Source: Gammaproteobacteria bacterium (GTDB lineage: Bacteria > Pseudomonadota > Gammaproteobacteria > GCA-001735895). Taken from it: a stretch of DNA of 64,000 nucleotides. Where the stretch lies: contig JBNKUM010000085.1 of NCBI GenBank assembly GCA_050298595.1, forward strand, positions 83,971 to 147,970, in the 5' to 3' direction. The notes beneath the pieces are model-generated. The model was not told the DNA's origin. It saw nothing but the letters and a program-made list of their open reading frames with translations, and searched no databases. Below are positions 8,775 to 62,775 of the stretch, piece by piece. Positions within the stretch are counted from its first letter, which is position 1; each line of letters begins with the position of its first letter. The position numbers and the translations under genes are program-made.

Positions 8775-8925
8775 GAGTATCTCCTGAATTCTGCTGTGCA
8801 AAAATAAGGCGCGCATTATCTTTACCTGCGAGCCTGTTGTCAACCGTAAAAAACTAATACGGCGTTAAATTCGGTGATAAAATGCCGCGTTTTTATCTAT
8901 TCCATGCAATTTACCGAGTAAAAGA

Positions 8926-10476
8926 TTGAGCGGGCTAATCAAATCTACCTTTTCTGTGGGCTCCATGACCCTGTTATCCAGAGTACTGGGGCTGGCCAGG
9001 GATATTATCATTGCGCGCTTTTATTCGGCTGGGCTGGAGGCTGACGCCTTCTTTGTCGCGTTTAAAATCCCTAACTTCATGCGTCGCCTGTTCGCTGAAG
9101 GGGCTTTCTCGCTGGCCTTCGTGCCGGTACTCACCGAGTATAAAAACACCCGTACATTAGATGAATGTCGAAACCTGATAAATCAGATCAGCGGCACCCT
9201 GGGTTTATTACTGATTGCGATTATGACCATAGGGGTTGTGGCTTCTCCCGCTCTGGTTTACGTGGTTGCCGCTGGTTTTGTCAAACAGCCAGAGAAGTTC
9301 CAGCTTACCGCTGATCTGCTGCGCATGACCTTTCCTTATATATTTCTGATCTCCATGACTGCAATGGCCGGTGGCATTTTGAATACCTGGAAAAAGTTTG
9401 CTGCACCCGCGTTTACTCCGGTATTACTCAATCTAAGCCTGATTGGCTGTACGCTATGGCTGGCACCTGTTATGGATATTCCGGTACACGCCTTGGGCTG
9501 GGGAGTGTTAATCGCCGGTGTTGTTCAGCTCAGCTTCCAGTTGCCTTTCTTATATAAGCTCGAACTACTACCCAGGCCCGTATGGGCATGGCATCAGCCC
9601 GGCGTTCAAAAGGTCATCAAACTGATGATTCCCGCACTATTCGGCTCATCGGTAGCGCAGATAAATTTATTGTTCGATACCTTTATTGCTTCCTTTCTGG
9701 TCACCGGCTCAGTGTCCTGGCTGTATTACTCGGACCGCCTACTGGAATTCCCATTGGGTGTGTTTGGTATCGCTCTGGCAACCGTGGTGTTACCCAATCT
9801 GTCTGAATCGCACTTTAGTCAGGGCAAGGATCATTTCAACGGCATTCTGAACTGGGCGGCTCAGCTTTCGCTGATGATCTCCTTGCCCGCCGCAATCGGA
9901 CTGATGTTACTCGCGCAACCTATCCTTGCCACACTATTCCAGTATGGAGCATTCGATGAATCAGATACCTTAATGTCGAGCATGAGTCTGATGGCCTACA
10001 GCCTTGGCCTGCCGGCATTTATTCTGATCAAGATTCTGGCGAATGCCTTTTACTCACGGCAGGATAGCAAAACACCGGTTCGCATAGGTATTTTTGCCAT
10101 GCTGGTGAATATGGTGCTGAACGTCATCTTCGTGCTGTTACTGATGAACTACAGCGAGATACCTGCACATGTCGGGCTGGCACTTGCCACCACCGGTTCA
10201 GCCTACTGTAATGCCGGGCTACTAGCCTATAGCCTGAGGAAACAGCAATATCTAACCTTAAGTCGAAGCTTTTTGATCACCGTACTGAAGGTTCTGCTTG
10301 CTACTGCAGGCATGGCACTGCTACTGTTTTACATCGCTGCCGATAGCGCGCAGTGGTCACAGTGGCTGTGGGCTCAAAGGTTGCTACATTTATGCCTGTT
10401 GATTATCCCCGCCATCTTGTGCTACACCCTGCTACTCTGGATAATGGGAATTCGTCGTTCCCATCTAGTACATTAA
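8926..10476 (+). CDS. murJ: Lipid II flippase MurJ (MviN)
   Basis: 516 aa polytopic membrane protein, LLSRVLGLARDIIIARFYSAGLEADAFFVAFKIPNF... Divergent from rpsT as in E. coli. Confidence 0.9.
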   Translation: MSGLIKSTFSVGSMTLLSRVLGLARDIIIARFYSAGLEADAFFVAFKIPNFMRRLFAEGAFSLAFVPVLTEYKNTRTLDECRNLINQISGTLGLLLIAIMTIGVVASPALVYVVAAGFVKQPEKFQLTADLLRMTFPYIFLISMTAMAGGILNTWKKFAAPAFTPVLLNLSLIGCTLWLAPVMDIPVHALGWGVLIAGVVQLSFQLPFLYKLELLPRPVWAWHQPGVQKVIKLMIPALFGSSVAQINLLFDTFIASFLVTGSVSWLYYSDRLLEFPLGVFGIALATVVLPNLSESHFSQGKDHFNGILNWAAQLSLMISLPAAIGLMLLAQPILATLFQYGAFDESDTLMSSMSLMAYSLGLPAFILIKILANAFYSRQDSKTPVRIGIFAMLVNMVLNVIFVLLLMNYSEIPAHVGLALATTGSAYCNAGLLAYSLRKQQYLTLSRSFLITVLKVLLATAGMALLLFYIAADSAQWSQWLWAQRLLHLCLLIIPAILCYTLLLWIMGIRRSHLVH

Positions 10477-22611: not shown

Positions 22612-23898
22612 ATGTCGAGCAACGGCATCCAGAGTTCAGCAAGAATACTTCGCCAGCTATACCTGCTACGTAATGTCACCATTATTTTCATTTCACTGAT
22701 GGTGATACTGGCGTTCTACGGCCTCAATATAAACCTGCCTGTCATTCCATTAAGCATCATCTTACTGATTATGGCTGGAACCAATCTACTCACCCGTTTG
22801 ATGATTGACCAGAATAAAGCCATCAGCCAGCGTGTGATTTTTATTCAGTTGATGATCGAGATTATTTCCTTTTCTCTAATCCTTTACTTTGCCGGTGGCG
22901 CCACCAACCCTTTAACCTTCTTTTATCTGATCCCGTTGGCGATTGCTGCCACCGTGATCCCCGGCCGCTACACCTGGACACTCACCCTGTTTACCATCGC
23001 TCTGTATAGTCTGTTACTGGAGTTCTATATCCCGCTTTCCTATCAGATGCATGATCACCAGCATATGCAAGCTGGTGATAGCCAGTTCAATCAGCATGTA
23101 CTGGGCATGTGGTTTGGTTTTCTGGTCAGCGCCTTACTGGTGACCTGGTTTATCACCTATCTGGCTCAGGAACTTAAATCTCGAGACATCGCCATCAACG
23201 AGGCACGTCAAAGAGAGTTACGCGATCAGCAAATGGTCACTCTGGGCACACTGGCCGCTGGTACTGCACATGAGTTGAGTACCCCATTAGCCACACTGGC
23301 TATAGTCAGTGGTGAGCTGACCGATGGTTTCGACCCAGTGAAGCATGAAGAATTGTTTGAGAACCAGCAAATCCTGCGCGACCAGATAGCACGCTGTAAG
23401 GATATTCTGTCTGTATTATCTGAATCTGCCGGTGAGGTGCGAGCCGACGAGGGTTATTTGATACCTGCCGAAGACTTTATCGACCAAACCATTCATCACT
23501 GGCAAAGCCTGCGTGATGGCATGCTGTTCGAGCTTAACAAAGCAGCTATGCCACACCATGCTCGTCTATTATTCGATAAAACCATCAGCCAGTCAGTGAT
23601 CAATCTGCTCAACAATGCAGCCGAAGTATCGACCGACCCGATACTGATAAACACCCAGATCCAGCAGGATATGCTCGAAATTGAGATTATCGATAATGGC
23701 CCAGGCATGAGTGACGAGCAAATAGCAATGGCCGGTGAAACCAGTTTTTCCGATAAACCCCACGGCATGGGCATAGGGTTATTCCTGGCTATCAGCACCC
23801 TGCGCCGGTGTGGTGGTAGTGTCCAGTTTGAACGCTTAACCCATCGGGGTACCTCTACCCTTATCACTATGCCCCTAATTATATCCGAGTCAACATAA
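22612..23898 (+). CDS. Redox-responsive sensor histidine kinase, RegB/PrrB/RoxS family
   Basis: Multi-TM N-terminus. H-box TLAAGTAHELSTPLATLAIV matches the RegB signature (AHELGTPL). HATPase motifs (NLLNNAAE, DNGPGM, GMGIGLFL). Confidence 0.8.
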   Translation: MSSNGIQSSARILRQLYLLRNVTIIFISLMVILAFYGLNINLPVIPLSIILLIMAGTNLLTRLMIDQNKAISQRVIFIQLMIEIISFSLILYFAGGATNPLTFFYLIPLAIAATVIPGRYTWTLTLFTIALYSLLLEFYIPLSYQMHDHQHMQAGDSQFNQHVLGMWFGFLVSALLVTWFITYLAQELKSRDIAINEARQRELRDQQMVTLGTLAAGTAHELSTPLATLAIVSGELTDGFDPVKHEELFENQQILRDQIARCKDILSVLSESAGEVRADEGYLIPAEDFIDQTIHHWQSLRDGMLFELNKAAMPHHARLLFDKTISQSVINLLNNAAEVSTDPILINTQIQQDMLEIEIIDNGPGMSDEQIAMAGETSFSDKPHGMGIGLFLAISTLRRCGGSVQFERLTHRGTSTLITMPLIISEST

Positions 23899-24443
23899 TG
23901 GAAAATAACCCAGACCAGGCCAACCTGTTAGTGGTTGATGATGATGAAGTGCTTTGTCATGTGCTCTCCAGAGCGCTGACTAAAAGACATTTTAATGTGC
24001 AGGTTGCTCACAGCCTTGACCAGGCCCTGATTAGCGCTCATCAAAACCCTCCCGAATTCGCCGTGGTAGATTTACGTATAGGCACTGATTCAGGCTTAAG
24101 CGTGATCAAGGAACTGGTCGCAACTGAGCCAGGCATTCGCATCGTGGTGTTAACGGGATACGCCAGTATCAGTACTGCGGTCGAGTCCATAAAACTGGGT
24201 GCCCAACATTACCTGACCAAACCCGCTGAAGTGGATGACATTATCCAGGCTTTTTATCACGAAGAAGGTCGTACCGAGATCGATATCTCTCCACAGCCCA
24301 TGTCGGTTAAACGCATGGAGTGGGAGCATTTACAGAAAGTCCTGAATGATAATGATGGTAATATTTCAGCCGCTGCACGCGCCATGGGAATGCATCGCAG
24401 AACCCTGCAAAGAAAACTCGCCAAGAAGCCAGTAAAGCAATAA
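23898..24443 (+). CDS. Response regulator, RegA/PrrA/RoxR family
   Basis: Receiver domain (LLVVDDDEV...VVDLRIG). C-terminal HTH NISAAARAMGMHRRTLQRKLAK is nearly identical to the invariant RegA HTH. Translationally coupled to the kinase gene. Confidence 0.85.
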   Translation: MENNPDQANLLVVDDDEVLCHVLSRALTKRHFNVQVAHSLDQALISAHQNPPEFAVVDLRIGTDSGLSVIKELVATEPGIRIVVLTGYASISTAVESIKLGAQHYLTKPAEVDDIIQAFYHEEGRTEIDISPQPMSVKRMEWEHLQKVLNDNDGNISAAARAMGMHRRTLQRKLAKKPVKQ

Positions 24444-24487
24444 AAAAGCCGACTGACGGGGCACTTTCATACAGCATAAAATCACCG

Positions 24488-35962: not shown

Positions 35963-36454
35963 ATGACCACATCTCTTTCAATTATCTGTGCTATGGATCA
36001 GAACCGGCTGATTGGCAAGAATAATGCCTTACCCTGGCACCTGCCTGCTGACCTGGCATTTTTTAAGCAAAACACCCTGGGGAAACCGATTGTGATGGGG
36101 CGCAAGACCTATGAATCGATTGGACGCCCCCTGCCCGGCAGGCAAAATATAATCATCACACGCGATGCTAATTACCGGGCCGAAGGTTGTGATTGCTGCT
36201 CAAGTATCGAAGCCGCGCTTGAGCTGGCCCGCGATCATGCTGAAGTGATGCTGATCGGTGGCGCAAGCCTCTATCAACAAACGCTGGAAAAGGCACAGCA
36301 CCTCTACTTAACTCGAATTCACTCAAGCTTTGAAGGCGACGCCTGGTTTCCAGAAATTAACCCTGATGACTGGAAGGAGATCTGGCGCGAAGACCACCGC
36401 TCGGATGAAAAAAATATATGCGATTTCTCTTTTGTTAAATATTCCAGAAAATAA
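35963..36454 (+). CDS. folA: Dihydrofolate reductase
   Basis: ISLIAAM-type N-terminus (LSIICAMDQNRLIGKNNALPW), GRKTYESIGRPLPGR. Confidence 0.85.
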   Translation: MTTSLSIICAMDQNRLIGKNNALPWHLPADLAFFKQNTLGKPIVMGRKTYESIGRPLPGRQNIIITRDANYRAEGCDCCSSIEAALELARDHAEVMLIGGASLYQQTLEKAQHLYLTRIHSSFEGDAWFPEINPDDWKEIWREDHRSDEKNICDFSFVKYSRK

Positions 36455-36522
36455 ACGACCAGCGCGCTTGGCTTATCAACATTGATTTACTAGAATGACC
36501 GTCCATTTAATGAGAGAGCGCT

Positions 36523-36807
36523 ATGGAGCTAGATAAAATGGAAAGCCGCACCTACATTATTGGTAGAGAAGGGCATATATATCTGAACGACAAAACTGTC
36601 AGTAAGCAGCATGCAGAGATTCAGATTATGAACGGCGAAATATACCTGAGAGATCTTGAGTCCACCAACGGTACCTATCTGGTAAAAAATAATCGTCTGG
36701 TTGCTTTTGCTGAAGGTTATGTACAGCTTAACCAGGCAATAGTTATTGGAAATAAGCAATACACGATTAAGAAATTACTGGAAATGGCCGGGGCTATCGC
36801 TGCCTGA
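36523..36807 (+). CDS. Stand-alone FHA-domain protein
   Basis: 94 aa. YIIGREGHIYLNDKTVSKQHAEIQIMNGEIYLRDLESTNGTYLV is a textbook FHA core (GR...SR.HA...DL.S.NGT). Confidence 0.7.
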   Translation: MELDKMESRTYIIGREGHIYLNDKTVSKQHAEIQIMNGEIYLRDLESTNGTYLVKNNRLVAFAEGYVQLNQAIVIGNKQYTIKKLLEMAGAIAA

Positions 36808-36845
36808 TTGAGGACATTATTCACCCTTTCGCAACACCTGTTCAG

Positions 36846-37127
36846 CTAGCTGATCGCTTTTTTCTGGCTTCTTTCATCGATAAAAACAGCAGAAGAATCA
36901 ACAGTTTCAACGACTCTCATCTCCATCTCTTCTAACTCACCAGGCGCCAGATAGTAGACCATATCAATTTGATGTCGGATATATCTTGATGGTAATCGTG
37001 TTAATGAATAACAGGCGACATCGAGAAAAAACTCTTCATCATGCTGTGGGTATTTGTCCACCAGAGTTTGACTAATATACTCAAACACCAGATTTTCGTA
37101 ATAATTATACAAACTGGCAAAATTCAT
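36846..37127 (-). CDS. ComFB-like small protein (putative cyclic-nucleotide receptor family)
   Basis: 93 aa. NYYENLVFEYISQTL...FLDVACYSLTRLPSRY pattern resembles the ComFB domain (PF10719). Last gene of the GAF-FecR operon. Confidence 0.45.
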   Translation of the reverse strand: MNFASLYNYYENLVFEYISQTLVDKYPQHDEEFFLDVACYSLTRLPSRYIRHQIDMVYYLAPGELEEMEMRVVETVDSSAVFIDERSQKKAIS

Positions 37128-37143
37128 TCGACTTACCTCTTTG

Positions 37144-38184
37144 TTATAGCCCTAGTCCAAATAGCGCACCACCTATTAACCAGGGCCAGAGTCCATTTTC
37201 TTCTTCTGGTGGTTTTGCATTCTGGTAAATTTTTGATTCTGCTTCGTTCAGCAGCCCAGGAACTGGTTCTTGATTATCCATCTTCTGCACCTTGCCCCAG
37301 TCTGCCACAGCATATTGCCCCTGAGCAAGCTCTCCCTGCACACCTTCTTCATCTTTCAAAGTAATCGCCCCCTTCAGTACCGCCACATGCAAACGGCTGT
37401 CTTCAGATGCACTGTTTGCTGAGTGTTCACAGTCATTAACTTGACATAGCATTAGCACATAATCAGTGCCGCGTACGCCAATAGTCATGACTCCTGCACT
37501 AACCCGATAAATACTTAAGGGATTAGCCGCAATAGCCCCGGTAATTTTACGCAACCCCCCCTTGATTAGATCAATGATACTGCGGCTGCCTTTTTCAAAG
37601 GCTGACTTCATCACGTACTCAGTAATACGTACAGAACTATCCGTTTTTAAATACAACTTTGCACCATCAACCATATCTATAGCTACCGTACTATCTGTGG
37701 AAGTTTTTATCCTGTCACCTTCATATACCGGAGAGTTTTGCTGGAGTGCATTCTGCTTTCCATTTTTATCGGTAGCTATAACATAACCATTAACACCTTT
37801 GATGACGCCTACCTGGACAAATCGATTAACCGCATTGAGTTTAGCGGGTTTACCGGGTTCACGGAGTTCACGGAGTTCATGGATTTTTTTAATGGTAACC
37901 ATTTTTAACGATGACCCTACGATCAGTTGACCAGTAAAACTGTCAAACGCTTCAGGGTTAAACTCCTGTATCTTCTGTTTTATCTGCGGCCAGAGGGGCT
38001 TATGCTCCGCATATATCTGCTCCACCAGTTTATCCAGAGTTTGATCTGGCCCAACTCGCATAATTTGGCGTGAAGATTCTACAAATTCGTAATGAATTTC
38101 CTCTGCATTTAGCGGGGTAAGTAAACAAATAAACACCAGAAAAAATCCAAACCCCAGAACACTCCTGGGTAAATAATGAATCAT
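37144..38184 (-). CDS. FecR-domain protein (secreted/periplasmic, single FecR domain)
   Basis: N-terminal hydrophobic segment. FecR-type beta-sandwich (VYEGDRIKTSTDSTVAIDMVDGAKLYLKTDSSVRI). IKGGLRKITGAI...IGVRGTDY motifs shared with the FecR protein inside the TPS operon. Start overlaps the GAF gene. Confidence 0.6.
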   Translation of the reverse strand: MIHYLPRSVLGFGFFLVFICLLTPLNAEEIHYEFVESSRQIMRVGPDQTLDKLVEQIYAEHKPLWPQIKQKIQEFNPEAFDSFTGQLIVGSSLKMVTIKKIHELRELREPGKPAKLNAVNRFVQVGVIKGVNGYVIATDKNGKQNALQQNSPVYEGDRIKTSTDSTVAIDMVDGAKLYLKTDSSVRITEYVMKSAFEKGSRSIIDLIKGGLRKITGAIAANPLSIYRVSAGVMTIGVRGTDYVLMLCQVNDCEHSANSASEDSRLHVAVLKGAITLKDEEGVQGELAQGQYAVADWGKVQKMDNQEPVPGLLNEAESKIYQNAKPPEEENGLWPWLIGGALFGLGL

Positions 38185-38825
38185 TTTGGCTCTCCATCAA
38201 TAAAGGTTAATTTTTGCACGCATTCAAGTACCTGACTGGCCATCCTGCCTGCAACATGCAGAATATTCAAGTCATTGATATCAAATGCAGCATCCTGTTT
38301 GTGGTTGACTACTTCAATCGCGCCAACAACCTCGTCTTCGATAGTCACGGGAGTACACATCAGTGAAGATGTTTGGAAATTAAGGCGTTCATCGATTGAC
38401 GCTGACCATTGCTTAGAGGCATGAACGTCTTCAACGAGCAATGCCTCTTTAGTCTTTATCACATGCCCAACCAATCCAGTATCTAGTGAAATCCGGTGAT
38501 TAAGTAAGTGATCATGCGATTCACCAACGACCGCGACGAACTCTAATTCACTGGTTTCCTCATCGATGAGTATTAACGAACCATTTTCGGTATTACAGGC
38601 ATGCATCACCATCTCCAATAATTCATTGAGCAATTCTGGAAGCTCCAGATTTATACTCATCGAGTGGGTCCTGGTATCAAGCTCTGCCAGTACTCGAAAC
38701 GCCTGTTGATGCCTGGCAAGTTTTTTACTGACCTGCTGGTTACGCACTTTCAGCAGATCATTCTCATCCCGTAGCATCTGAATAATATCGCGCCGATTAA
38801 TTGCCATATAGATAAATCCATTCAC
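38181..38825 (-). CDS. Coiled-coil + GAF-domain protein
   Basis: N-terminal coiled coil (LRDENDLLKVRNQQVSKKLARHQQAFRVLAELD). GAF fold (GSLILIDEETSELEFVAVVGES...GLVGHV...MCTPV...VGAIEVVN). Confidence 0.6.
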   Translation of the reverse strand: MNGFIYMAINRRDIIQMLRDENDLLKVRNQQVSKKLARHQQAFRVLAELDTRTHSMSINLELPELLNELLEMVMHACNTENGSLILIDEETSELEFVAVVGESHDHLLNHRISLDTGLVGHVIKTKEALLVEDVHASKQWSASIDERLNFQTSSLMCTPVTIEDEVVGAIEVVNHKQDAAFDINDLNILHVAGRMASQVLECVQKLTFIDGEPK

Positions 38826-38959
38826 AAAGTGTGCATAATATGATAGAGGACGACCGCTAAAAACACCAATCGTGTTAACATACTGAATTTAAAGGCCAGA
38901 CGGTTAGGTTATTCGACAAAATGCATTATTTCTTGCGTAAGAGGAATGCGTTTAATCAA

Positions 38960-39808
38960 TTAACGGGAAGATTTTCTTTCTGATGTGGCAGTTTTTTCGC
39001 AGGAAAGACTAAACCAGCGTGGTGTTTTCTTATCGATACGTAGAGCTGTGATGCGCCCGCCCCATAAGCAACCACTGTCAATAGCAAAACAACCGCCATA
39101 CTGATTGGTGGGCAAGGTTGACCAGTGACCGAAAGCCAGGCGGTTATGCTTGATAGCAGATTGACTAAATTCAAACCAGGGATTGACATCGCTGGAGTTA
39201 ACTTTTTGCGGCGCACCTTTGATTTCAAGATCAAGGCTGCCATCATTTCGCAGGTAACGCATGCGGGTAAATACGTTGGTAATAAAGCGCAGCCTTTCCA
39301 TTCCGTCGAGTTGATCTGACCAAATTGCGGGATGATTACCGTACATTTCCCTTAGAAAATCGACTATGCGTTCTCCACGTAACGCTTGCTCAACTTCCCG
39401 TGCGCACTCATAAGCCTGGGTAAGACTCCATCCAGGGTAAATACCCGCATGAACCATGGCAAAATTCAACCCAATATCGTAATGCAGAAGCGGTCTGAAC
39501 CTGAGCCACTCAATCAATTCCTTGCAGTCATCAGCTTGCAGAATCTGGTTTAAGCTATTACTTGATTTAACTTTGACCTGCCCATAATAGAGTGCCAGTA
39601 AGTGCAGATCATGGTTACCCAATACGCTGACCGCGCTATCGCCCAAAGAGCGCACAAAACGTAATGTTTTCAAGGACTGTGGCCCACGATTGACCAGATC
39701 TCCGACGAACCATAATTGATCCGTTTGCTGATCATAATTTATCGCTTTGAGCAGCTTTTTCAGGTTGCTGTAACAACCCTGTACATCGCCAATCACATAA
39801 ACAGCCAT
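38960..39808 (-). CDS. apaH: Bis(5'-nucleosyl)-tetraphosphatase (symmetrical)
   Basis: MAVYVIGDVQGCYSNLKKLL...GDLVNRGP...GNHD, canonical ApaH. Confidence 0.9.
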   Translation of the reverse strand: MAVYVIGDVQGCYSNLKKLLKAINYDQQTDQLWFVGDLVNRGPQSLKTLRFVRSLGDSAVSVLGNHDLHLLALYYGQVKVKSSNSLNQILQADDCKELIEWLRFRPLLHYDIGLNFAMVHAGIYPGWSLTQAYECAREVEQALRGERIVDFLREMYGNHPAIWSDQLDGMERLRFITNVFTRMRYLRNDGSLDLEIKGAPQKVNSSDVNPWFEFSQSAIKHNRLAFGHWSTLPTNQYGGCFAIDSGCLWGGRITALRIDKKTPRWFSLSCEKTATSERKSSR

Positions 39809-39815
39809 CTCAGCC

Positions 39816-40433
39816 TCATTCAGCAGACGCTGATTTTTTTAATTCAATATAACGAAACCAGCCATTTGCCAGGGCTGGCTCATCACTTACTAATGTGAGC
39901 TGATTGCATTTAGCCAGTAAATGCTCAAATACCACATTGGTTTTGGTGGCAAAATGTCTAATCAGAGGATTGATCAAACGACGTCCTAATGCCAGCTGTC
40001 CGGGACGTAAGAATTTATCGACAATCAGTAATTGCCCGCCAGGCTTTAATATTCTGCTAGCTTCAGTCAGGGCCTTAAATGAGTCGGGAACGATGGCGAG
40101 TATTAAATGCATGATGACCGCATCAAAGGCATTATCTTCAAACGGCAATTTCATTGCATCCGCCTGTTGAAGCGTGAGATCAAGATCATCACGCTGGGCA
40201 GCTCGGTTACGTGCTTTAGCTAACATCGCAGGTGTTATATCAATGCCAGTATAGCTGGCTTTTGGGTTGAGAAAAGGTATATCCAGCCCGGTACCGATAC
40301 CGACAATTAACGTGTCTGGGGTACCCTGATGATTCAGACGTAGCAGGCTCTTCTGCCTTAGCGGCCTGGTTGCACTATCTACCATGACATCGTAAATGGG
40401 TGCCAGTAACGTATAGCTGTGTTTTAGCGCCAC
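39816..40433 (-). CDS. Class I SAM-dependent methyltransferase
   Basis: [10 protein letters not shown] (motif I), ...AVIMHLIL..., PGGQLLIV. Inserted between apaG and apaH. Confidence 0.65.
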
Positions 40434-45547: not shown

Positions 45548-48500
45548 CTACTTACACACCAGCCTGGGAGCGCGCTTTTTCTCGTCATCTTCTTCATCCT
45601 CAGTTTCAATACTGGCAACCTTGTCAACAAAGCTCATTGTCTTAACCATCTGTTGATGATCTAGCTCTCCACTATCAAACAACGTTTCAAGCAGATTCGA
45701 AACTTTATCCATATCTTCATTAGAAACCACAACCGTATCTTTAAATGTAAACGTCCCCTGATTGATTATTCTGAAAGGATTATTGATTTGTAAAATAGAA
45801 GTATCGGGAGAAAACCAGTTAACCGTCCCGGTAGGTGTGATCAGCCAGTCAGTACCTAAAACTCCACTAACCAAATCTACGCGACCAGAAGTTGTCAAAC
45901 CTGTACCATTAATAGTTCCCGTATCCCACAACATGTCGCCCGCATAGTTTAGGTTATTAGCTTTAAGCGTCCCTCCTACAAGTTCTATCCTGGCAATTTG
46001 GAGTGGCGTATTGGCAACTAAAGACGACCCTGATGAAATCGATATACTTCCTCCACCGGTCAAGCTTGACATAGCATTAACAGTTAACTCAGTGTTATTT
46101 AGAGCTAAAACTTTACCTTGCTGCACCTGTATTGATGAAGCCTGGACAGCAACTAACAGAGGATTTTGTGTATTGCTACCTATAAAACTACCCCCATCGA
46201 CGATTACGGATGTAGATGCAGAAATCACCAGATTCCCTTCAGCCTGAATTTCGCTACTACCCGACATCGTCACGCTCGTTGGCAAGACAGGAATGTTCTG
46301 CACTCTGGAAACCACTCCATCAACCAACTCCCAGTTTATGGTCGTATCGTAAACAAGGGGATGAATATCTACAGCAAACTCAGAAGTATTGTTTAAGGAT
46401 AAAAGTCCTGAACCTAAAAACTGGGCGTTACTGCTGGCTGATGACAGGGAGACACCATCTGATAAGGAAAGTTGTGCGCCATTCGCCCAGGACATAATGC
46501 CTTTATTGTCTATAGAGCCTGTACCGGTAAAGACATTAGTTCCACTACTGGCATCTATCGCAAACAATGCATTGTTCACCAGATTGCCATTTATCTGAAA
46601 GGGAGTACCTACACTGGTTTGAATTTCACCCCAGTTAACAGCGTCAGCAGACAGGGTGCCCTGATCAAGTTTAAGCGTTGCACCTAAATTATATAAAACA
46701 CCTGTACCCGTTCTGGACACTAAGGCATCGGATGCAGAAATGGCTAACCCACCACTACCATTGAACGGATCAAGTATAAAAGCATTGCCACTTATATCAA
46801 GGCTACCACCAGCGCCTACTTTGATCTGGCCATGCGCCTGAATTCCTCTAACAGCAGCAGTAGAGGTGATATCAACAACTGGGGTAGTTGTTCCATCAAT
46901 AAATACATCCGTGCTTGAATCAGGCGCCACCGTCGCAGTAAGCCCAGTAGAGAGATCCATCCAGTTATCTAGATCACTCCAACTGGTTGGAGAAGTAGAT
47001 GATAACCCCGTCCATTGATAGATATTACTGGTATCTATGCTACCAATTGTATAACTGGCCGTATCAGCAATAACTGATCCATAATCAACAGTGCCTGCTG
47101 AAGTTGTCGCAATAGGGTCAACAATGGTGTCAAAGCCACTCCCTGAAAAACAACCAGTACCCGTGCAACCAACTACCGATACAGTGTTGCTAGAACTATC
47201 AGCAGCTAGTACAGCTGAGCTATCTTGCCAGTTCAAAATCAAATCACCACCATTAATAGCAACAGTATTCGCACTCACATAACTTGACACCATGCCATCT
47301 GATGCCGCCAGGACTGAATATAAGCCCCCAGAATTAAACACTAGATCACCATTAATAGTTAATGTGCCTGGGCTTGTTGAGTCATCTCCACCAGCGATCA
47401 CGCCACCATTCACGGTTACACTGCTGTTTATAGCAGCCCATCCAGAACTACTGAGACCTGAACCAGGTCCGAGCTCAAGCACTCCTCCAGTTAAAGTCAG
47501 CGTATTGTTATCCTGTATGTCGATCCATCCTGGATTTTTGAAATTTATAAACTGAGTATCTATAGTCGAGATAGAAGTAGTAAAGCTATTAAGATTAATA
47601 TTCCCCTTATTATAAAACTGCCCTGTACCTGTGATACTGGCATTCTCCATATTGATATCACCGCCATTGGTCAACATTGAAGTGGCGTCTAAATCTAGTG
47701 TTGTAAACTGCATATCGATCGAATGTCCCTGCTGCACATTCCAGCTGGTATTTTGTAGTTTTAGAGCACCGCCTCCGGTTATTGATGTATTACCATTTAC
47801 CATTAAGCTACCAGCATTGGTAGCAAGATCTACATTAAAACTTGCGGTTGAAGCAAACGTTTTAAAGTTAACCAGACCTGAGCCATCATTATCTATGTCT
47901 GGATTCAATATAAGGTTTAATGCACCGGTGCCTGTTGCAGAGATAGTGAGATTACTAGCAGCTGCATCAAAAATAATGTCATTGTGTGCATTTAACGTAA
48001 GTGAAACAGCGCTACTCGATAGAGAATTGATATCCGCCAGGATGGTAATATCACCTGCTTGACTATTACCCCCAGCTGTAGCTGTTGAAACAGTGACATT
48101 TGTGCCTGCGTTGAGAGCAGCTTCTATAGATGCGACACTCAAATAAGCACTGTCACCCGTTGAAATAAAATCAGGGTCACCTGTGATGAGAGCATCTGCA
48201 GTCGAACTAATTGTTATATTATTTGGATCAATCAACCACTCACCTGCATTACCATTAAGTGCCGAGGCATCCGGCACCGATGTAATATCCAGATAGTGTT
48301 TACCAGAGGTTTCTATAAACCCACCATCACCACTAACCGCACCACCACGCGCAGTTACTTCACCATGTACGTGCACATCTTTCTCTGCAAATACGATGAC
48401 TTTGCCTCCATTTCCTGTCGTGTCGGCATCAGCATTGACACTGGCACCGGCAGCTATCGTGGTTGAGCTTGCATTGTGGATCTCGGGATTCAACCCCTGC

Positions 48501-49414
48501 TGATCACCACCGATAAGAATCTCTCCACCAGCAGTATCACCAGATGCATTGATATTCGCACCCTCATCAATGTTGACTGTATCGCCAAGTATCTCGATAT
48601 ACCCGCCCTGAATACCTGAGGCGTCTACGCGGCCACTAACCTGATTGGTAGCTTTGGCAACCAGGCTGATACTTCCATCAGCATTCTGCACCAGACCTCC
48701 AGCACGAATTGAACCACTGTGCTTCAAGGCCCCTGCAAACAAACTGGCACTACCCTGATTCGCTAAAATTTTACCCAGATTGGTCACCGTGTTTTCACTT
48801 CCAGTAACTTCAAACTGTATGGCCGGATTCTCCAGACTGCTGATGGTAATCGATTGCCCTGCCGCCAGTATGATATTTCCATTATCGACTTCGATAACGC
48901 CACCGTTTTCGATATTCGGTGCGATCAATACAATATTGCCATTATCTCCTGCATGGATATAGCCCTGATTGCTAATTCCAGCTGAGCTATCACCTTCAAA
49001 CTTTAGATTTCCATTCAGGTAATCACTATCTGTTATATTCAATGTGGAAGCGAAAAAACCGGCTGTATTGATTTGCGCACCAGCCCCAACAAGGAGGCCA
49101 TGTTGATTAATCAGAAATACCTTACCATTTGAATTCAAATTACCCAGCAACTGGCTAGGGTTATTGGATATCACGCGATTTAATACGGAACTCGCCGCAG
49201 AGGGCTGAATAAAATTGGTGGTTTGTCCGGCGCCGATATTGAACGATTGCCAGTTGATGATGGCATTATTACTGTTCGTAACATTTAAAACATTTACACT
49301 GGGATTAGAAAAGGTAGCCGAGCCGTGAACAACCTGCCCACCCGCAGGGTTGGCGTTGGCCATTTGACTACTCAGAATCAGACTGATGGTAAAAGCTAGC
49401 GTATTGTATTTCAT
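45548..49414 (-). CDS. Two-partner-secretion exoprotein (TpsA; filamentous-haemagglutinin-type beta-helical protein)
   Basis: Signal peptide then TPS domain (NPAGGQVVHGSATFSNP...AIINWQSFNIGAGQTTNF...SAASSVLNRV...NGKVFLINQHGLLVGAGAQIN). About 1100 aa of Gly/Asn/Thr/Ser-rich beta-helix repeats. Acidic C-terminus. Confidence 0.8.
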   Translation of the reverse strand: MKYNTLAFTISLILSSQMANANPAGGQVVHGSATFSNPSVNVLNVTNSNNAIINWQSFNIGAGQTTNFIQPSAASSVLNRVISNNPSQLLGNLNSNGKVFLINQHGLLVGAGAQINTAGFFASTLNITDSDYLNGNLKFEGDSSAGISNQGYIHAGDNGNIVLIAPNIENGGVIEVDNGNIILAAGQSITISSLENPAIQFEVTGSENTVTNLGKILANQGSASLFAGALKHSGSIRAGGLVQNADGSISLVAKATNQVSGRVDASGIQGGYIEILGDTVNIDEGANINASGDTAGGEILIGGDQQGLNPEIHNASSTTIAAGASVNADADTTGNGGKVIVFAEKDVHVHGEVTARGGAVSGDGGFIETSGKHYLDITSVPDASALNGNAGEWLIDPNNITISSTADALITGDPDFISTGDSAYLSVASIEAALNAGTNVTVSTATAGGNSQAGDITILADINSLSSSAVSLTLNAHNDIIFDAAASNLTISATGTGALNLILNPDIDNDGSGLVNFKTFASTASFNVDLATNAGSLMVNGNTSITGGGALKLQNTSWNVQQGHSIDMQFTTLDLDATSMLTNGGDINMENASITGTGQFYNKGNINLNSFTTSISTIDTQFINFKNPGWIDIQDNNTLTLTGGVLELGPGSGLSSSGWAAINSSVTVNGGVIAGGDDSTSPGTLTINGDLVFNSGGLYSVLAASDGMVSSYVSANTVAINGGDLILNWQDSSAVLAADSSSNTVSVVGCTGTGCFSGSGFDTIVDPIATTSAGTVDYGSVIADTASYTIGSIDTSNIYQWTGLSSTSPTSWSDLDNWMDLSTGLTATVAPDSSTDVFIDGTTTPVVDITSTAAVRGIQAHGQIKVGAGGSLDISGNAFILDPFNGSGGLAISASDALVSRTGTGVLYNLGATLKLDQGTLSADAVNWGEIQTSVGTPFQINGNLVNNALFAIDASSGTNVFTGTGSIDNKGIMSWANGAQLSLSDGVSLSSASSNAQFLGSGLLSLNNTSEFAVDIHPLVYDTTINWELVDGVVSRVQNIPVLPTSVTMSGSSEIQAEGNLVISASTSVIVDGGSFIGSNTQNPLLVAVQASSIQVQQGKVLALNNTELTVNAMSSLTGGGSISISSGSSLVANTPLQIARIELVGGTLKANNLNYAGDMLWDTGTINGTGLTTSGRVDLVSGVLGTDWLITPTGTVNWFSPDTSILQINNPFRIINQGTFTFKDTVVVSNEDMDKVSNLLETLFDSGELDHQQMVKTMSFVDKVASIETEDEEDDEKKRAPRLVCK

Positions 49415-49442
49415 AATGATGGCTCCTCTGGTCTACAGTAAA

Positions 49443-50909
49443 TTACTGCAGACGGCATTCAAACTCCTCTTTATCACTACCTTTGGCACCAAACAAATTA
49501 ATCTTTTTCTGCATTTTCAGTGACAACTGTGAAGGCACAGGGATCTTGTCAAACTTCTGGAAAGGCGGAACAAAGTTCAGGCGTATGGTCTTCCCGGCAA
49601 GCCCTGCTAAACCAGCCTCACCCTTACCCAGATTAACAACACTGCCATCGACACCCTCAACCGCAACATCACCGTCTCGCACATTAACATATAACCCCGG
49701 CTCAATATTCTGTCTATCTGAGCCACTAAACAGATCATCTCTAATTGTGATTCGATCAGGTCTGGGCGCATTACCCATGGTACGAAGATGGACCGGAAAA
49801 TCAGGTATGATCACCGGTTTGGTGAATCCATTTTTGACAAATGCTGCCTTACCATTTTCCAGTAGCATTTTGCCGCCTTCAAATTGCAACTCTATGGCAC
49901 CACTCCACACCCTGGCATACATGCCACTGCCGCTTAAGGCATAAGCTGGTTTCAAAAAGAATTGCAACAGTTTTGCAACCACCGTTTCACTCAGTGGGTC
50001 CTGCAATGCCGTGTTGTCCACACAATCACCATCACAGGCCAGGTCAAAGCCAGTACCACGGATACCTATGGTTGCTGTTGGCGTTGCCACTCGATAGGAG
50101 CGCTCATTCAAGCGCCCAATAGCGCCAGTGATCAGACGCAAGCCACCTCGAATAAACCTTAAAAATGCATTATTCTCTGCTGGCACTTCAGGCTTATAGT
50201 AATGTTCTTCAATCTTAAAGGCTGAAGACGGACTCATCGTGATACGGCTTTTATCGTTAAACACTAAAACAGCAAACGATTTAATTCCGGTTTGTATTTG
50301 ATCAAGCTCGTATACTGCTGCACCAGTCGATAAGGGGCGTGATTTATTATTAGCGTCCAGTGCACTGGCCTTACCCTGCATTAAAGCAATACGGCCGATA
50401 ACCTTTGATTCATTCTGCGAATTCTTATTCAGTGCTCGATTTTCTTCATCACACTCAGCACTTTCACACAGTCGGGCGTCAAATTCAGTACCCCGAATAC
50501 CGATGGTGGCTACTCGAGTATTGATACGAAAAGCACTGGGGCGACTTTTACTGATGAGACCTGTTATGGCTCGAAAGCCGCCTCGAATCAAATTCATCAA
50601 TGCGCTTTCACTACCCTTAGTCGTATTTACGTCCTCAATTTTAAACGTTGTATTAGGTCGAAGCGTCATGCGCGTACCGTCTTCCAGTTTGATCACGGCA
50701 AAGCTGCTAGTGCCTGTATTCAAAGTTTCACCTTTATACAATGACCCACCTTTGCCCAGAATCTGGAGAGCATCATTGCCAACCTGCCCTGTTAGCACTC
50801 CTCGGGTATAAGCCACCTCACCTACTTCAGTCGCGGCAAATACAGAACCTTGCAGGCACAGTAAAAATGAGAAAAACAAACTACGGTGAATCATGCTTTT
50901 TCTATCCAT
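49443..50909 (-). CDS. Secreted tandem FecR-domain protein encoded between tpsB and tpsA
   Basis: Signal peptide. Two FecR-type domains (FAVIKLEDGTRMTLRPNTTFKIED...IGIRGTEFD and FAVLVFNDKSRITMSPSSAFKIEE...IGIRGTGFD). Cys pairs CESAECDEE and CDGDC. RGGxRxITGxI motifs. Confidence 0.7.
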   Translation of the reverse strand: MDRKSMIHRSLFFSFLLCLQGSVFAATEVGEVAYTRGVLTGQVGNDALQILGKGGSLYKGETLNTGTSSFAVIKLEDGTRMTLRPNTTFKIEDVNTTKGSESALMNLIRGGFRAITGLISKSRPSAFRINTRVATIGIRGTEFDARLCESAECDEENRALNKNSQNESKVIGRIALMQGKASALDANNKSRPLSTGAAVYELDQIQTGIKSFAVLVFNDKSRITMSPSSAFKIEEHYYKPEVPAENNAFLRFIRGGLRLITGAIGRLNERSYRVATPTATIGIRGTGFDLACDGDCVDNTALQDPLSETVVAKLLQFFLKPAYALSGSGMYARVWSGAIELQFEGGKMLLENGKAAFVKNGFTKPVIIPDFPVHLRTMGNAPRPDRITIRDDLFSGSDRQNIEPGLYVNVRDGDVAVEGVDGSVVNLGKGEAGLAGLAGKTIRLNFVPPFQKFDKIPVPSQLSLKMQKKINLFGAKGSDKEEFECRLQ

Positions 50910-50917
50910 AGCCTGCC

Positions 50918-52465
50918 TCAGAATCGGTAAATCAAGTTAAAGTGGGCCTTATCGTCACCATCCTGGTTGATCGTGGCATCAGGACCACCACCTTTATTGA
51001 TGACAGCATAATCAAGCGCAACACTTAGCTGTTCTTTCCAGCTCCAGCGTAACCCGACTCCATAGGAAGAAAGATCGTAATCTCCACTGTCGTTAAATTT
51101 GACCTTAGCCTGATCAATAAAAACCAGATAGCGCATATTTGCAAAGGCCGGGGTCCAGATTTCAAAAGAAGTTTGATAGCCGCTATCACCGATTACGGAA
51201 CGTTCTTCAAAACCACGCAGCGTAGAACTACCACCCACACCAAATTGTTCGCCTGAAATCAGTAAATCACTACTACTTTGCCCACTTAAACCCGCGTGCA
51301 AGAGCCAGTCTTTAGAGAAAATCAGATCATAAGCAAGGTTGTATCGTATAGCAGTCCAGTCATTTTTGGCGCCTGTACGGAGCAGTTCATAATCCTCATC
51401 ACTATTGTTACTGCCAGAATCAATATTCAAATCATAGAAAAAATCACCACTAATGGAGCTTGATTTGGCTGTATAGGTAAAACCATAACCCAGTTCTAGA
51501 GGAAAACTCCCTACATCGGCATTTGATACGTTCCCATTAATATCAATCTCATTCTCGAAGAGTTTATTTTGAAACCCAACAGACCACTGGTGATTAAAGT
51601 TGGTATCGGTCAACATCGGACGCGAATAAGTAAAACCAAATACCGAGCCCTTTCCGGTAATAGCTACACCTCCACCCACTTCACCAGAATTGACCTCCGA
51701 ATCTGAAAATATAAAATCCAGATTGGCACCATGTGAATATAGCGGTATATGGTAGCTCAGACCAAACTGATTGGTGGCATCCGGGTCTTCTGGAGCTACG
51801 GTCAAGGTTGCGGTTATCGTGTGATCGCGGTTGAATAGATTGCCATTCTGATATCCCAGAGTACTGCGGAATTCACTGGTATCTTTGCTACCAGTATTAT
51901 CCAGCGTCAGGAAAAAAAGCTGCGGGTTACGATCATTGACGGTTAAATTAGCATCAATGGTATCTCCCTCGTCACCTTCCTTAAACTTAAGCACCATATT
52001 CTTGGAAGCGTGATTATTAGCAAGTTTCAAAGAACGCGACAATTCCCTGGTATTTGGTGTACTACCAACACTTAACTCAGGAAGAGAGCTACGGATATTC
52101 CGTTCATTAAAGAACTTATTACCCGATATATTTATCGCCCCGATAGTAAAATGAATAACATTCAACTCGACGGTACCAGAGATTAATTGCTGAGGAGGCA
52201 GGGACACTCGGTGAAAACTATAACCCTGTTTAATAATTTCCTGTTCCAGGGCATCAGCCGCAGCAGATAACCCATCCAGACCATAATGCTCACCTAGATA
52301 GGATTGCAGTACTTTTTGCGCTTTGTCCGCTATTGGGTTATCACCAGTGACGTCAAAGCTAGAAACCGTAAAACGCATTGGCGTATAAGTAGTTTGGGCA
52401 TACCCTACCATTGGCAACAGAGTAACAAAAAATAAAACAAAGGCACTTCCCTGAGGTATTCGCAT
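50918..52465 (-). CDS. TpsB outer-membrane transporter (ShlB/FhaC/HecB family, POTRA + 16-strand barrel)
   Basis: Signal peptide at the internal start MRIPQGSAFVLFFVTLLPMVGYA. POTRA-region motifs. C-terminal beta-barrel ending in ...FNLIYRF (terminal aromatic residue). Confidence 0.8.
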   Translation of the reverse strand: MRIPQGSAFVLFFVTLLPMVGYAQTTYTPMRFTVSSFDVTGDNPIADKAQKVLQSYLGEHYGLDGLSAAADALEQEIIKQGYSFHRVSLPPQQLISGTVELNVIHFTIGAINISGNKFFNERNIRSSLPELSVGSTPNTRELSRSLKLANNHASKNMVLKFKEGDEGDTIDANLTVNDRNPQLFFLTLDNTGSKDTSEFRSTLGYQNGNLFNRDHTITATLTVAPEDPDATNQFGLSYHIPLYSHGANLDFIFSDSEVNSGEVGGGVAITGKGSVFGFTYSRPMLTDTNFNHQWSVGFQNKLFENEIDINGNVSNADVGSFPLELGYGFTYTAKSSSISGDFFYDLNIDSGSNNSDEDYELLRTGAKNDWTAIRYNLAYDLIFSKDWLLHAGLSGQSSSDLLISGEQFGVGGSSTLRGFEERSVIGDSGYQTSFEIWTPAFANMRYLVFIDQAKVKFNDSGDYDLSSYGVGLRWSWKEQLSVALDYAVINKGGGPDATINQDGDDKAHFNLIYRF

Positions 52466-52988
52466 GACTATAAATTCTTCATTCTCGAATTTAAAATCAT
52501 ATCGACTGGTGATTACATTGTCCATGATAAACTGGCTCAGGACATGCTATTTAGAGTACTTTCTATTAACTTGGACTTAATAAAGGATACTCTGTCTAGA
52601 ATTATCATACCCACATGACAAATCTAAATAGTAAAACCATTTTGCTGCGCATAAACATGCTTTAACGCAGTAATAAACATACTTTGCCATAACTGTTTCG
52701 GCTTTGCGCTGACTCTCAAAACCTCTCAAACACTTCGATTGATACAGGTAATCACCAGCATCCAATAATAGCCCAGCCTGCAGATCCAGAGCCTGAAACA
52801 TTTTTACCAATAACAGCGATAGCGCTATAGAAGGAACATCTAGTGCACTTTTCCAGGATCCTGTCGGATTTAGGGTGAATCTACTGCGGAAAAGGCATTT
52901 TGGCCAACAATCCGATCATTTTCGTTAAATAGGCTCACTATTCGCCTCAAATGATCGAAATATTTCGACTCAAAATACCGTTCCTTCG

Positions 52989-55689: not shown

Positions 55690-55895
55690 ATAGTTTATTA
55701 AACCAACTGCGGTGTTAGTTAGCTTCTATAAGATCCTTGAGCCTAATTATCAACTTCGGGGCGATCAGTGTCATACTGGTGTGCATGCCCGAGATTTTTC
55801 GGGAAGCCTGATGGATGCCCTCTTGCCCCACCTGAACCTTCTGGTTCAAGGTTGATAGTCTGCGACGGCATCGCGGTTGGTATTTTCTCCTTCTA
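55690..55895 (+). ncRNA. ssrS: 6S RNA (SsrS)
   Basis: Conserved zapA-ssrS-ygfA locus. CTGGTGTGCATGCCCGAG...CACCTGAACCTTCTGGTTCAAGGTTGATAGTCTGCGACGGCATCGCGG closely parallels the E. coli 6S 3' half (GGUGAGCAUGCUCGG...CACCUUGAACCAAGGGUUCAAGGGUUACAGCCUGCGGCGGCAUCUCGG). A 5' segment ACCAACTGCGGTG can pair with the 3' CGCGGTTGGT closing stem. Ends are approximate. Confidence 0.7.
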
Positions 55896-62094: not shown

Positions 62095-62775
62095 GTGAAT
62101 TTAGAATTTATAAAAAAAGGAACTGTTGTGAGCTTAGAGCCTATCCAAAAAATACCACCGACAGAAAACCCCGCCCTGGACAGTTTTCTTAAACATTGCC
62201 ACCGCAAAACTCTGCCCGCTCGACAAACAATCATCCATGCTCGCGATGAATCGCATACATTGTATTACATTATCGATGGCTCGGTTAGCGTGGTCATCGA
62301 GGATGAAGACTGCAACGAAATTGTGCTGGCTTATCTAAACTCGGGTGACTTTTTTGGAGAAATGGGACTTTTTGAAGAAAACCTGAAACGCAGCGCCTGG
62401 GTCATCACCCGAACTCAATGTGAAATTGCTGAAATTCATTACAATCAGTTCATGCAACTAGCCAGAGACACCCCTGAAATTCTGTTCCAACTATCTGCTC
62501 AGCTTGCCGCCCGATTACGCAATACCAGTCGCAAGGTCAGCAACCTGGCGTTTATGGATGTGACAGGTCGTGTAGCAAGAACTTTACTTGATCTGGCCAA
62601 ACAGCCAGACGCTATGACCCATCCTGACGGCATGCAAATCAAGGTTACACGTCAGGAAATTGCAAAGATTGTGGGTTGTTCAAGAGAAATGGCTGGCCGT
62701 GTGATCAAGACACTGGAAGAGGACAACCTGATCTCTGCTCATGGTAAAACTATAGTAGTTTTTGGTACTCGCTAA
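62095..62775 (+). CDS. crp: cAMP receptor protein CRP (Vfr-like global regulator)
   Basis: Near-identity to E. coli CRP across the cNMP-binding domain and HTH ([41 protein letters not shown]). The N-terminus is about 15 aa longer than E. coli CRP, so the true start may be internal. Confidence 0.9.

Follow-up and report, generated by a model that had tools for sequence, protein, structure and literature searches.

Four genes between folA and apaH in an uncultured gammaproteobacterial lineage: a candidate accessory signalling islet

We examine here four genes that stand between folA and apaH in a stretch of 64,000 nucleotides (nt) from contig JBNKUM010000085.1 (assembly GCA_050298595.1, positions 83,971 to 147,970), called the window throughout. 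They encode a GAF protein, a FecR-domain protein, a ComFB-family protein and a stand-alone FHA protein. Our favoured reading, held with moderate confidence, is that they form a lineage-specific accessory signalling islet at the folA/apaH junction, composed of two separately inherited units. The first would be a gaf-fecR-comFB operon that lies downstream of apaH on the same strand and travels with it. The second would be the FHA gene, which is best read as belonging with the folA block, as the last gene of lptD-surA-pdxA-rsmA-folA, and which needs none of the other three. The gene structure, the domain identities, the topology cues and the pattern of conservation and loss are demonstrated in what follows. 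The evidence makes a second-messenger theme plausible but does not support a relay of four parts. Each of the four families is already known; what is new is the arrangement, in which a LysM-like/FecR gene is preceded, in translational coupling, by the gene of a GAF protein of the type that binds cyclic nucleoside monophosphates (cNMP), and a ComFB gene comes after it.

Pattern of conservation and loss

The comparison covers about 160 loci, obtained by scanning GTDB species genomes with the ComFB alignment and metagenomes with the FHA alignment, and by additional context look-ups. The same locus is found in identical form in several NCBI metagenome-assembled genomes (MAGs), and the folA/apaH slot is filled in dozens of relatives, both genomes and metagenome contigs. 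Synteny extends over the whole neighbourhood inside a deep uncultured lineage labelled only 'Gammaproteobacteria bacterium'. To judge by the sample names, most of its members were recovered from metagenomes of marine sediment or of the water column; their housekeeping proteins are 50-65% identical to those of the window. A first-pass annotation of the window had taken absence of the linkage from related genomes as a sign of chance juxtaposition; the linkage recurs in them.

The content of the slot is, however, a mosaic. Both FHA and apaH are captured at 58 loci, some of which are near-duplicates and which are phylogenetically non-independent. FecR is intact in 50 of these and split in one more (L127). 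ComFB is intact in 25, with remnants in 2, and GAF is intact in 22 and truncated or disrupted in 11. The three minus-strand genes are all intact in 13 of the 58, which hence carry all four genes with FHA, and FecR stands alone in 12. The partial sets seen are ComFB+FecR, FecR+GAF, ComFB+GAF, ComFB alone and GAF alone. Two slots are empty with FHA kept (L096 and L122), and one locus, L013, has apaH-GAF-FecR-ComFB intact with unrelated genes in place of FHA and folA. It is because FHA persists in otherwise empty slots, and because L013 keeps the operon without FHA and folA, that we divide the islet into two units. Since the parts are individually dispensable, we regard them as an accessory, modulatory set and not as a machine.

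Wherever a locus captures both folA and FHA, FHA comes after folA on the same strand, and 54-87 nt separate folA from the conserved core of FHA in nearly all cases (one outlier has 21 nt). Within the minus-strand unit, the junction between GAF and FecR measures -8 to +2 nt wherever both genes are intact, mostly as a 4-nt start-stop overlap or as TAATG, with the caveat that the junction script picked the start codon nearest the upstream stop and is thus biased to short distances. This close junction persists over deep divergence, and it is the strongest sign of a functional pair at the locus. ComFB lies on the same strand as FecR in the related loci, 12-154 nt away.

The first-pass annotation had proposed that the four genes form one signalling module with a sensing relay. 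In its full form this would be an integrated pathway, with the FecR protein sensing an envelope cue, the GAF and ComFB proteins reading cyclic mono- and dinucleotides, and the FHA protein binding to a phosphorylated product of the operon. We consider this improbable. It can call on the 13 loci in which the four genes stand together, spread across genomes at the housekeeping divergence given above, and on the 3' ends of FHA and ComFB, which are 1-63 nt apart in relatives and terminator-free, so that overlapping transcripts are possible. On the other hand, all subsets of the genes are seen, GAF and ComFB have become pseudogenes repeatedly with FHA still about 76% identical, FHA is found alone in two slots, and the operon is found once without it. 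Divergent FHA homologs also sit in unrelated contexts, and no kinase gene is nearby. The comparison thus gives no support to the module as an obligate set of four.

The opposite explanation is chance juxtaposition, in which a permissive junction and vertical inheritance have brought together genes with no shared function beyond co-transcription. To this we give appreciably more weight than to the relay, though we still think it unlikely. The mosaic of presence and absence fits it, as do the unrelated neighbours of distant homologs of each family and the variable FecR-ComFB spacing. ComFB genes in general usually stand alone with varied neighbours, as stated in the family survey (PMC12448109). 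The GAF/FecR start-stop overlap, held over deep divergence, speaks against it and for a functional pair. So does the convergence of three of the four families, each independently, on nucleotide second messengers, a coincidence judged, not calculated, to be unlikely for random accessory genes.

Among deep relatives, the median identities to the window are 76% for FHA, about 61% for ComFB, about 50% for GAF and 39% for FecR, compared with 79% for apaG, 76% for thyA, 61% for folA, 55% for apaH and 49% for surA. By this comparison, all four genes are real and constrained where present. FHA is among the slowest-evolving genes of the region, like thyA and apaG, and FecR is the fastest-evolving of the cluster genes; envelope proteins often evolve fast.

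Linkage beyond the lineage was looked for from three anchors and discarded in each case. The 44 distant ComFB loci (35-48% identity) have no homolog of the other window genes; their hosts are cultured Alteromonadales, Chromatiales and Burkholderiales (Neiella, Psychrobium, Thalassotalea and Rubrivivax among them), and the genes around them, such as ccoN and tryptophan dioxygenase, are unrelated. Distant FecR homologs occur in htpG-FecR-hslR or, with two-partner secretion (TPS) genes, in TPS-FecR-ShlB contexts. FHA homologs of 56-62% identity stand amid LuxR-type regulators, IS66 elements, a CoA-transferase and an EamA transporter.

The GAF and ComFB remnants look like ongoing gene decay and not like clean absence. 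The GAF remnants are short fragments of 15-62% coverage in nine loci (L075, L076, L095, L102, L103, L121, L130, L132 and L142), and two further copies (L091 and L141) are disrupted, being frameshifted or stop-containing. The ComFB fragment of L077 and L078 has 36% coverage. Their places are the FecR-apaH and FHA-FecR intervals. Four apparent GAF stops were rejected as decay, being due to an over-long GTG start or to the natural stop codon.

Gene layout and transcription

The genes of the junction and the intervals between them are as follows.

35963-36454 (+): folA, left flank
36455-36522 (+): folA-FHA spacer, 68 nt; terminator-like site not found, two weak promoter-like sites
36523-36807 (+): stand-alone FHA protein, 94 amino acids; Pfam FHA, E=1.4e-13
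36808-36845 (no strand): FHA/ComFB convergent 3' junction, 38 nt; intrinsic-terminator hairpin not found
36846-37127 (-): single-domain ComFB/CdgR-family protein, 93 amino acids; Pfam PF10719
37144-38184 (-): FecR-domain envelope protein, 346 amino acids; Pfam FecR, alignment A3, AlphaFold2 model
38181-38184 (-): GAF stop/FecR start overlap, 4 nt (ATGA), indicating translational coupling
38181-38807 (-): cytoplasmic stand-alone GAF protein, 208 amino acids; Pfam GAF families, corrected start
38808-38959 (-): apaH-GAF spacer, 152 nt; no minus-strand promoter-like or terminator-like consensus
38960-39808 (-): apaH, right flank

All four open reading frames of the first-pass annotation are found in the window, and its four domain calls are right, each being above the Pfam gathering score against which we judged the matches. 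Its coordinates stand for FHA, ComFB and FecR. The GAF start has to be moved from 38825 to 38807, most likely the conserved Met of the MAINRR motif, since orthologs have in-frame stops upstream of this Met and gene callers choose it. The overlapping or abutting arrangement of the minus-strand genes, with FHA converging on them, is borne out by the 4-nt overlap, a gap of 16 nt between FecR and ComFB, and the 38-nt spacer.

The position of the cluster between the folA and apaH blocks is likewise as first described, the flanks being lptD-surA-pdxA-rsmA-folA on the plus strand and lgt-thyA-apaG-methyltransferase-apaH on the minus strand. In E. coli, too, folA and apaH are convergent neighbours, and the four genes therefore look like an insertion into an old junction. 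Two features of the minus-strand flank vary among relatives. The UbiE-like methyltransferase gene between apaH and apaG (39816-40433, -) is shared with the seven closest relatives alone and is absent deeper in the lineage. At the thyA slot, five loci (L013, L017, L018, L027 and L079) have a gene only about 33% identical to the window ThyA, with alignments of about 283 residues versus 264, which suggests a swap for a different ThyA type at the same position.

As for transcription, no promoter-like or terminator-like consensus was found on the minus strand of the window that would separate apaH from GAF, and the folA-FHA spacer has no terminator-like site. For these reasons read-through from the housekeeping blocks is plausible: the gaf-fecR-comFB operon may be transcribed from apaH, and the 68-nt spacer fits co-transcription of FHA with the surA-pdxA-rsmA-folA block. 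At the FHA/ComFB junction we found no bidirectional terminator (RNA fold z-score -0.37, no terminator-like site).

A terminator-like hairpin with a T-rich tract is present at 38153-38169 (-), 12 nt past the GAF stop and within the 5' coding end of FecR. It could attenuate expression of FecR and ComFB; the region has a total of 3 such sites versus 1.8 expected from shuffled sequence, which is not an excess. No riboswitch was detected in the window, the sole Rfam family being 6S (SsrS) RNA (RF00013, 101 bits) at 55701-55883 (+).

The four proteins

The first-pass annotation had called the 93-residue protein ComFB-like, and the profile bears this out: PF10719 matches with E=1e-15 and 58.0 bits (cut-off 25), over profile positions 2-81 of 83, so that by its sequence the protein is a secure member of the family. 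ComFB is an experimentally established family of receptors for cyclic di-GMP (c-di-GMP) and cyclic di-AMP (c-di-AMP) (PMC12448109, PMC10068817), as had been anticipated. Binding has been shown for the ComFBs of B. subtilis, T. brockii, V. cholerae (dissociation constant for c-di-GMP 1.4 uM) and T. denticola, and motility phenotypes are reported for B. subtilis and S. oneidensis (PMC12448109). CdgR works through c-di-GMP-sensitive binding to the transcription factor DevH (PMC10068817).

In the profile alignment with CdgR (8HJA), residues N8, E11 and Y49 of the window protein align to the dimer residues N64, E67 and Y106, the same positions being N4, E7 and Y46 in the B. subtilis protein (BsComFB). 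N8 and Y49 are invariant, and E11 is Glu in 40 of the 41 clade members. The contacts defined by mutagenesis are D93, Y97, N100, R101, T108, T/S109, Y115 and Q116 in CdgR, and D33, N40 and K41 in BsComFB. Among these ligand positions, D36, Y40, R44 and Y58 of the window protein conserve D93, Y97, R101 and Y115, and the Q116 position is not conserved. Ligand binding by this ComFB is probable. The AlphaFold2 model has four helices at a mean predicted local distance difference test (pLDDT) of 86; its top PDB matches are 8HJA and 4WAI, both weak (E 0.39 and 1.5, template modelling score about 0.45).

At about residues 1-50 the GAF protein has a conserved N-terminal helix; its GAF domain, at about residues 55-196, is matched by the Pfam families GAF, GAF_2 and GAF_3 with E about 1e-13 and about 53 bits. 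Its best PDB matches are 5W10 (E=7e-18), GAF-B of PDE2A (4e-13) and CyaB2 (7e-12), followed by PDE5 and PDE10, with E from 7e-18 to 2e-9. All of the top 11 are cNMP-GAF proteins, in keeping with the cyclic-nucleotide theme first suggested for the GAF gene. Lcd1 of Leptospira depends on cAMP. The nucleotide contacts of PDE2A GAF-B are reportedly S424, F438, D439, D485, T488 and T492 (Martinez et al. 2002); of these, the S424, D485 and T492 positions match in the window protein. The 5W10 structure is that of Lcd1 (PMC11800159). In an exhaustive HMMER search, only about five full-length stand-alone relatives were found among 1.84 billion cluster representatives; the remaining ones, among the matches listed, are almost all larger and mostly tandem-GAF proteins.

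The FecR protein was described from alignment A3 (32 orthologs) and an AlphaFold2 model (pLDDT 78.5), which give four parts.

38101-38184 (-): predicted signal peptide, residues 1-28, ending ...PLNA|EE; hydrophobic N-terminus, A-[ED] site conserved in the family, predicted helix 7-26
37879-38097 (-): LysM-like N-terminal domain, residues 30-102; modelled beta-alpha-alpha-beta topology, pLDDT 83-93
37282-37815 (-): FecR-type beta-sandwich domain, residues 124-301; Pfam, Foldseek
37147-37194 (-): C-terminal hydrophobic tail, residues 331-346, LWPWLIGGALFGLGL, which ends the protein

The N-terminal domain carries the motif NP.AF.RYTG.L.PG.RL and is FimV/LysM-like. It gives a weak in-register hhalign match to the LysM of MltD (E=0.002, probability 13%), and neither Pfam (E up to 10) nor a PDB profile search finds LysM by sequence, so that a LysM identity is at most suggested by the model. 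A linker, disordered in model and alignment, leads to the FecR domain, where PF04773 matches residues 157-274 (E=4e-11, 43.6 bits versus 24); the protein also matches the NCBIfam LapA retention module. Foldseek relates the domain to BDI_1681 (4M0N), the CCSSD of PupR (6OVK) and the MpIBP anchoring domain (5IX9), the last an adhesin retention module, with E 3e-5 to 2e-4 overall and about 4e-5 for 6OVK and 4M0N. It has two invariant Cys residues, C247 and C252, which probably form a periplasmic disulfide. In the tail, W333, P334 and W335 are invariant or nearly so, a helix is predicted at 334-345 with low pLDDT, and all orthologs end 1-3 residues from it; the tail is probably a membrane tether. 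The signal peptide, the invariant Cys pair and the fold common to periplasmic CCSSD domains together place the protein, by prediction, in the periplasm, which agrees with the periplasm-facing role it had first been given.

The Pfam match, together with the fold likeness to the periplasmic domains of PupR and BDI_1681, might suggest classical FecR-type cell-surface signalling, with an anti-sigma regulator coupling a TonB-dependent transducer to a sigma factor of the extracytoplasmic function (ECF) type in response to iron or siderophores. This is barely credible here. The N-terminus is a signal peptide followed by the LysM-like domain instead of a cytoplasmic anti-sigma domain with a mid-protein transmembrane helix, and no ECF sigma factor or TonB-dependent receptor gene is adjacent in the window or in the related loci inspected. 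The protein architecture effectively refutes an anti-sigma identity.

A different association is seen among homologs. Three distinct distant FecR homologs (P0098, P0109 and P0101) adjoin genes of CHASE2 class-III cyclases. LysM+FecR proteins of the COG4254 (PA4035) type are operon partners of CHASE2 histidine kinases (PMC5192318), and the Clr/cAMP regulon of S. meliloti, which CHASE2 cyclases drive, has a FecR-domain protein among its targets (PMC5498481).

The window has a second FecR-domain gene about 7 kilobases (kb) away (49443-50909, 488 amino acids, Pfam FecR 90.8 bits). It belongs to a two-partner-secretion operon (45548-52525, -) with a ShlB/TpsB transporter (50918-52525) and a TPS exoprotein (45548-49414, 1288 amino acids). 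The ShlB/FecR/TPS trio also surrounds a distant FecR homolog of a Nitrosomonadales MAG (L069).

The FHA protein matches PF00498 with E=1.4e-13 and 51.5 versus 20.7 bits. G14-R15, S27-x-x-H30 and N49-G50 are invariant in the 24 orthologs of alignment A2 and match the canonical phosphothreonine (pThr)-binding set, with the spacing of Rad53 FHA1. The closest PDB relatives are ArnA, OdhI/GarA and the FHA domain of the diguanylate cyclase DgcB. The C-terminal tail LLE[IM]AGA[FLI]AA is invariant, with a short acidic extension in some orthologs; its terminal hydrophobic-Ala-Ala resembles an ssrA-like ClpXP degron.

The first-pass annotation had suggested looking for Ser/Thr kinases or components of a type VI secretion system (T6SS) that could use the FHA protein. 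Over most of the 64 kb, for which a precomputed Pfam annotation exists, we saw no Ser/Thr kinase, GGDEF/EAL or PP2C phosphatase gene, no T6SS or type III secretion system (T3SS) gene, and no CHASE2 or cyclase gene. A secretion accessory, with FHA as a TagH/Fha1-like T6SS or YscD-like T3SS component and the cluster regulating secretion, is thus a very improbable reading. It could point to weak FHA matches to Yop-YscD_cpl (35.8 bits versus a cut-off of 33.2) and VI_FHA, and to the two-partner secretion operon with its own FecR. The protein is, however, an FHA domain only, of 94 residues, and scores far under the VI_FHA cut-off (TIGR03354, 24.6 bits versus 120), and the constant neighbour of its gene is folA. 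None of the four proteins has a PADLOC match, and an anti-phage defence reading was rejected.

Fusions of FHA with c-di-GMP modules exist elsewhere, namely the FHA-GGDEF protein DgcB in solved structures and an FHA-PilZ gene near FecR/CHASE2 loci, and they would lend some support to the four-gene relay. The FHA part of the FHA-PilZ fusion is, however, not specifically related to the window FHA (E=11), and the fusion was rejected as a Rosetta-stone link. The gene itself (PilZ 65 bits) lies at 8842-9536 (-) in L162 and at 7640-8334 (-) in L163, about 4 kb from a TPR-FecR/CHASE2-cyclase cluster and beyond a radA-like gene. It is a second case of FHA and a c-di-GMP receptor domain near a FecR gene.

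Proposed function and relation to known systems

The favoured reading, an islet of two units, ties the first unit to second messengers on the grounds of the ComFB family, the cNMP-type GAF domain and the FecR relatives beside CHASE2 cyclases. The ligands, partners and outputs of all components are what we infer. ComFB would dimerise and bind c-di-GMP or a related cyclic dinucleotide, and might then alter the activity of a partner protein on direct contact, after the example of CdgR with DevH and of BsComFB and the S. oneidensis protein (SoComFB) in motility control. The coiled-coil GAF protein would bind a small ligand, possibly cAMP or cGMP, and work with the FecR protein. The latter, like the LysM-FecR (COG4254) partners of CHASE2 sensors, probably aids a CHASE2 cyclase or kinase encoded elsewhere. 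The FHA protein would read a Thr-phosphorylation mark set by a kinase encoded elsewhere and would not be mechanistically tied to the operon.

It is important to point out that several observations weigh against this reading. The evidence for linkage all comes from one syntenic lineage, in which conservation of the neighbourhood is confounded with vertical inheritance; outside it, ComFB, FecR and FHA homologs have unrelated neighbours, and the junction distances carry the script's bias noted above. No Ser/Thr kinase, GGDEF/EAL, CHASE2 or cyclase gene is among those annotated in the window. The FecR protein has no cytoplasmic domain through which it might communicate with GAF or ComFB, and its N-terminal domain is called LysM-like from the topology of the model and from a weak match in hhalign.

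At the residue level, T43 of the window ComFB replaces N100 of CdgR (N40 in BsComFB), an Asn of both the ligand and the dimer contacts. The position is Thr in 38 of 41 clade members and Asn in 33 of 44 other proteobacterial ComFBs. Exchange of this Asn for Ala impairs binding by CdgR (PMC10068817), and in BsComFB it impairs both binding and dimerisation (PMC12448109). The CdgR ligand residues T108 and S109 are moreover R51 and H52. In the GAF protein only three of the six PDE2A GAF-B contacts listed above match, F438, D439 and T488 being replaced by A, V and L, and the T488-equivalent position is hydrophobic in all orthologs inspected. With key contacts substituted in both ComFB (Asn to Thr) and GAF, ligand binding by the two proteins is not assured from their sequences.

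One extension can be built on these substitutions. The coupled GAF-LysM-like/FecR pair and ComFB might combine three inputs in a way not described before, one of them a cue from the envelope or the peptidoglycan and the other two a cyclic mono- and a cyclic dinucleotide, with the clade-specific Thr43 either retuning nucleotide specificity or serving as a phospho-site read by FHA. If true, ComFB would be a crosstalk point of cyclic-dinucleotide (c-di-NMP) and Ser/Thr-kinase signalling through Thr43 and FHA. We regard this as a long shot, less probable than the relay discussed earlier.

The only other signalling genes noticed in the window are a PilS-like histidine kinase with a short NtrC-type response regulator (22612-24450, +) and a Crp-family cNMP-binding regulator (62095-62775, +).

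As to what the islet means, the standing of ComFB as a widespread c-di-NMP receptor dates only from 2023-2025, and hardly any proteobacterial partner of it is known. The operon gives it co-transcribed GAF and FecR neighbours, which are concrete candidate partners, and hints at crosstalk of cyclic mono- and dinucleotide signalling. In the searchable literature we found neither this arrangement nor any combination of ComFB with FHA, or of FecR with GAF and FHA. The mosaic loss is also a caution, as a tidy 'module' in one genome dissolves into independently dispensable parts among relatives. The practical impact is modest, with known families and an uncultured host.

We finally compare the four proteins with known systems. 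Relative to the ComFB/CdgR family (B. subtilis 4WAI, Synechocystis CdgR 8HJA, V. cholerae, S. oneidensis), the window ComFB is likewise a stand-alone protein, of the size of about 90 residues typical for the Pseudomonadota cluster, and has the single conserved Cys. It shares the dimer N, E and Y and the ligand D, R/K and Y/F with the family. It differs in the Thr-for-Asn and R51/H52 exchanges and in following GAF and FecR genes, a neighbourhood that the family survey does not list (PMC12448109).

The cNMP GAFs (Lcd1 5W10, PDE2A GAF-B 1MC0/3IBJ, CyaB2 1YKD and PDE5/PDE10) are the closest of all solved structures to the window GAF. They share with it the Ser, Asp and second Thr contacts and the G-x-x-G-H-V loop. 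Their TG dipeptide ahead of the conserved aromatic residue is LN in the window protein and varies among orthologs. Whereas they are sensor domains of enzymes, the window GAF is a stand-alone protein of 208 residues with an N-terminal helix.

For the FecR protein the comparison is with the LysM-FecR proteins of the COG4254/PA4035 type and with SMc02177 of the S. meliloti CyaD1/Clr cAMP system. Like the COG4254 proteins, it would combine a signal peptide, a LysM-type module and a FecR domain outside the cytoplasm, the LysM likeness being structural and weak. Unlike in those systems, no CHASE2 gene is found in the cluster or the window; the gene is coupled instead to that of a cytoplasmic GAF protein, and the product has an extra invariant W-P-W C-terminal tail. 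With the FecR/PupR anti-sigma regulators it has the fold of the periplasmic domain in common, but neither a cytoplasmic anti-sigma domain nor neighbours of the FecI/FecA type.

The FHA protein, finally, is like OdhI/GarA of Actinobacteria and ArnA of Sulfolobus in being a single FHA domain with the canonical pThr residues. It lacks a phospho-acceptor tail of the GarA type at its N-terminus, and its gene has neither a kinase nor a phosphatase gene in the vicinity. Unlike all three, it is gammaproteobacterial, and its gene always comes after folA.

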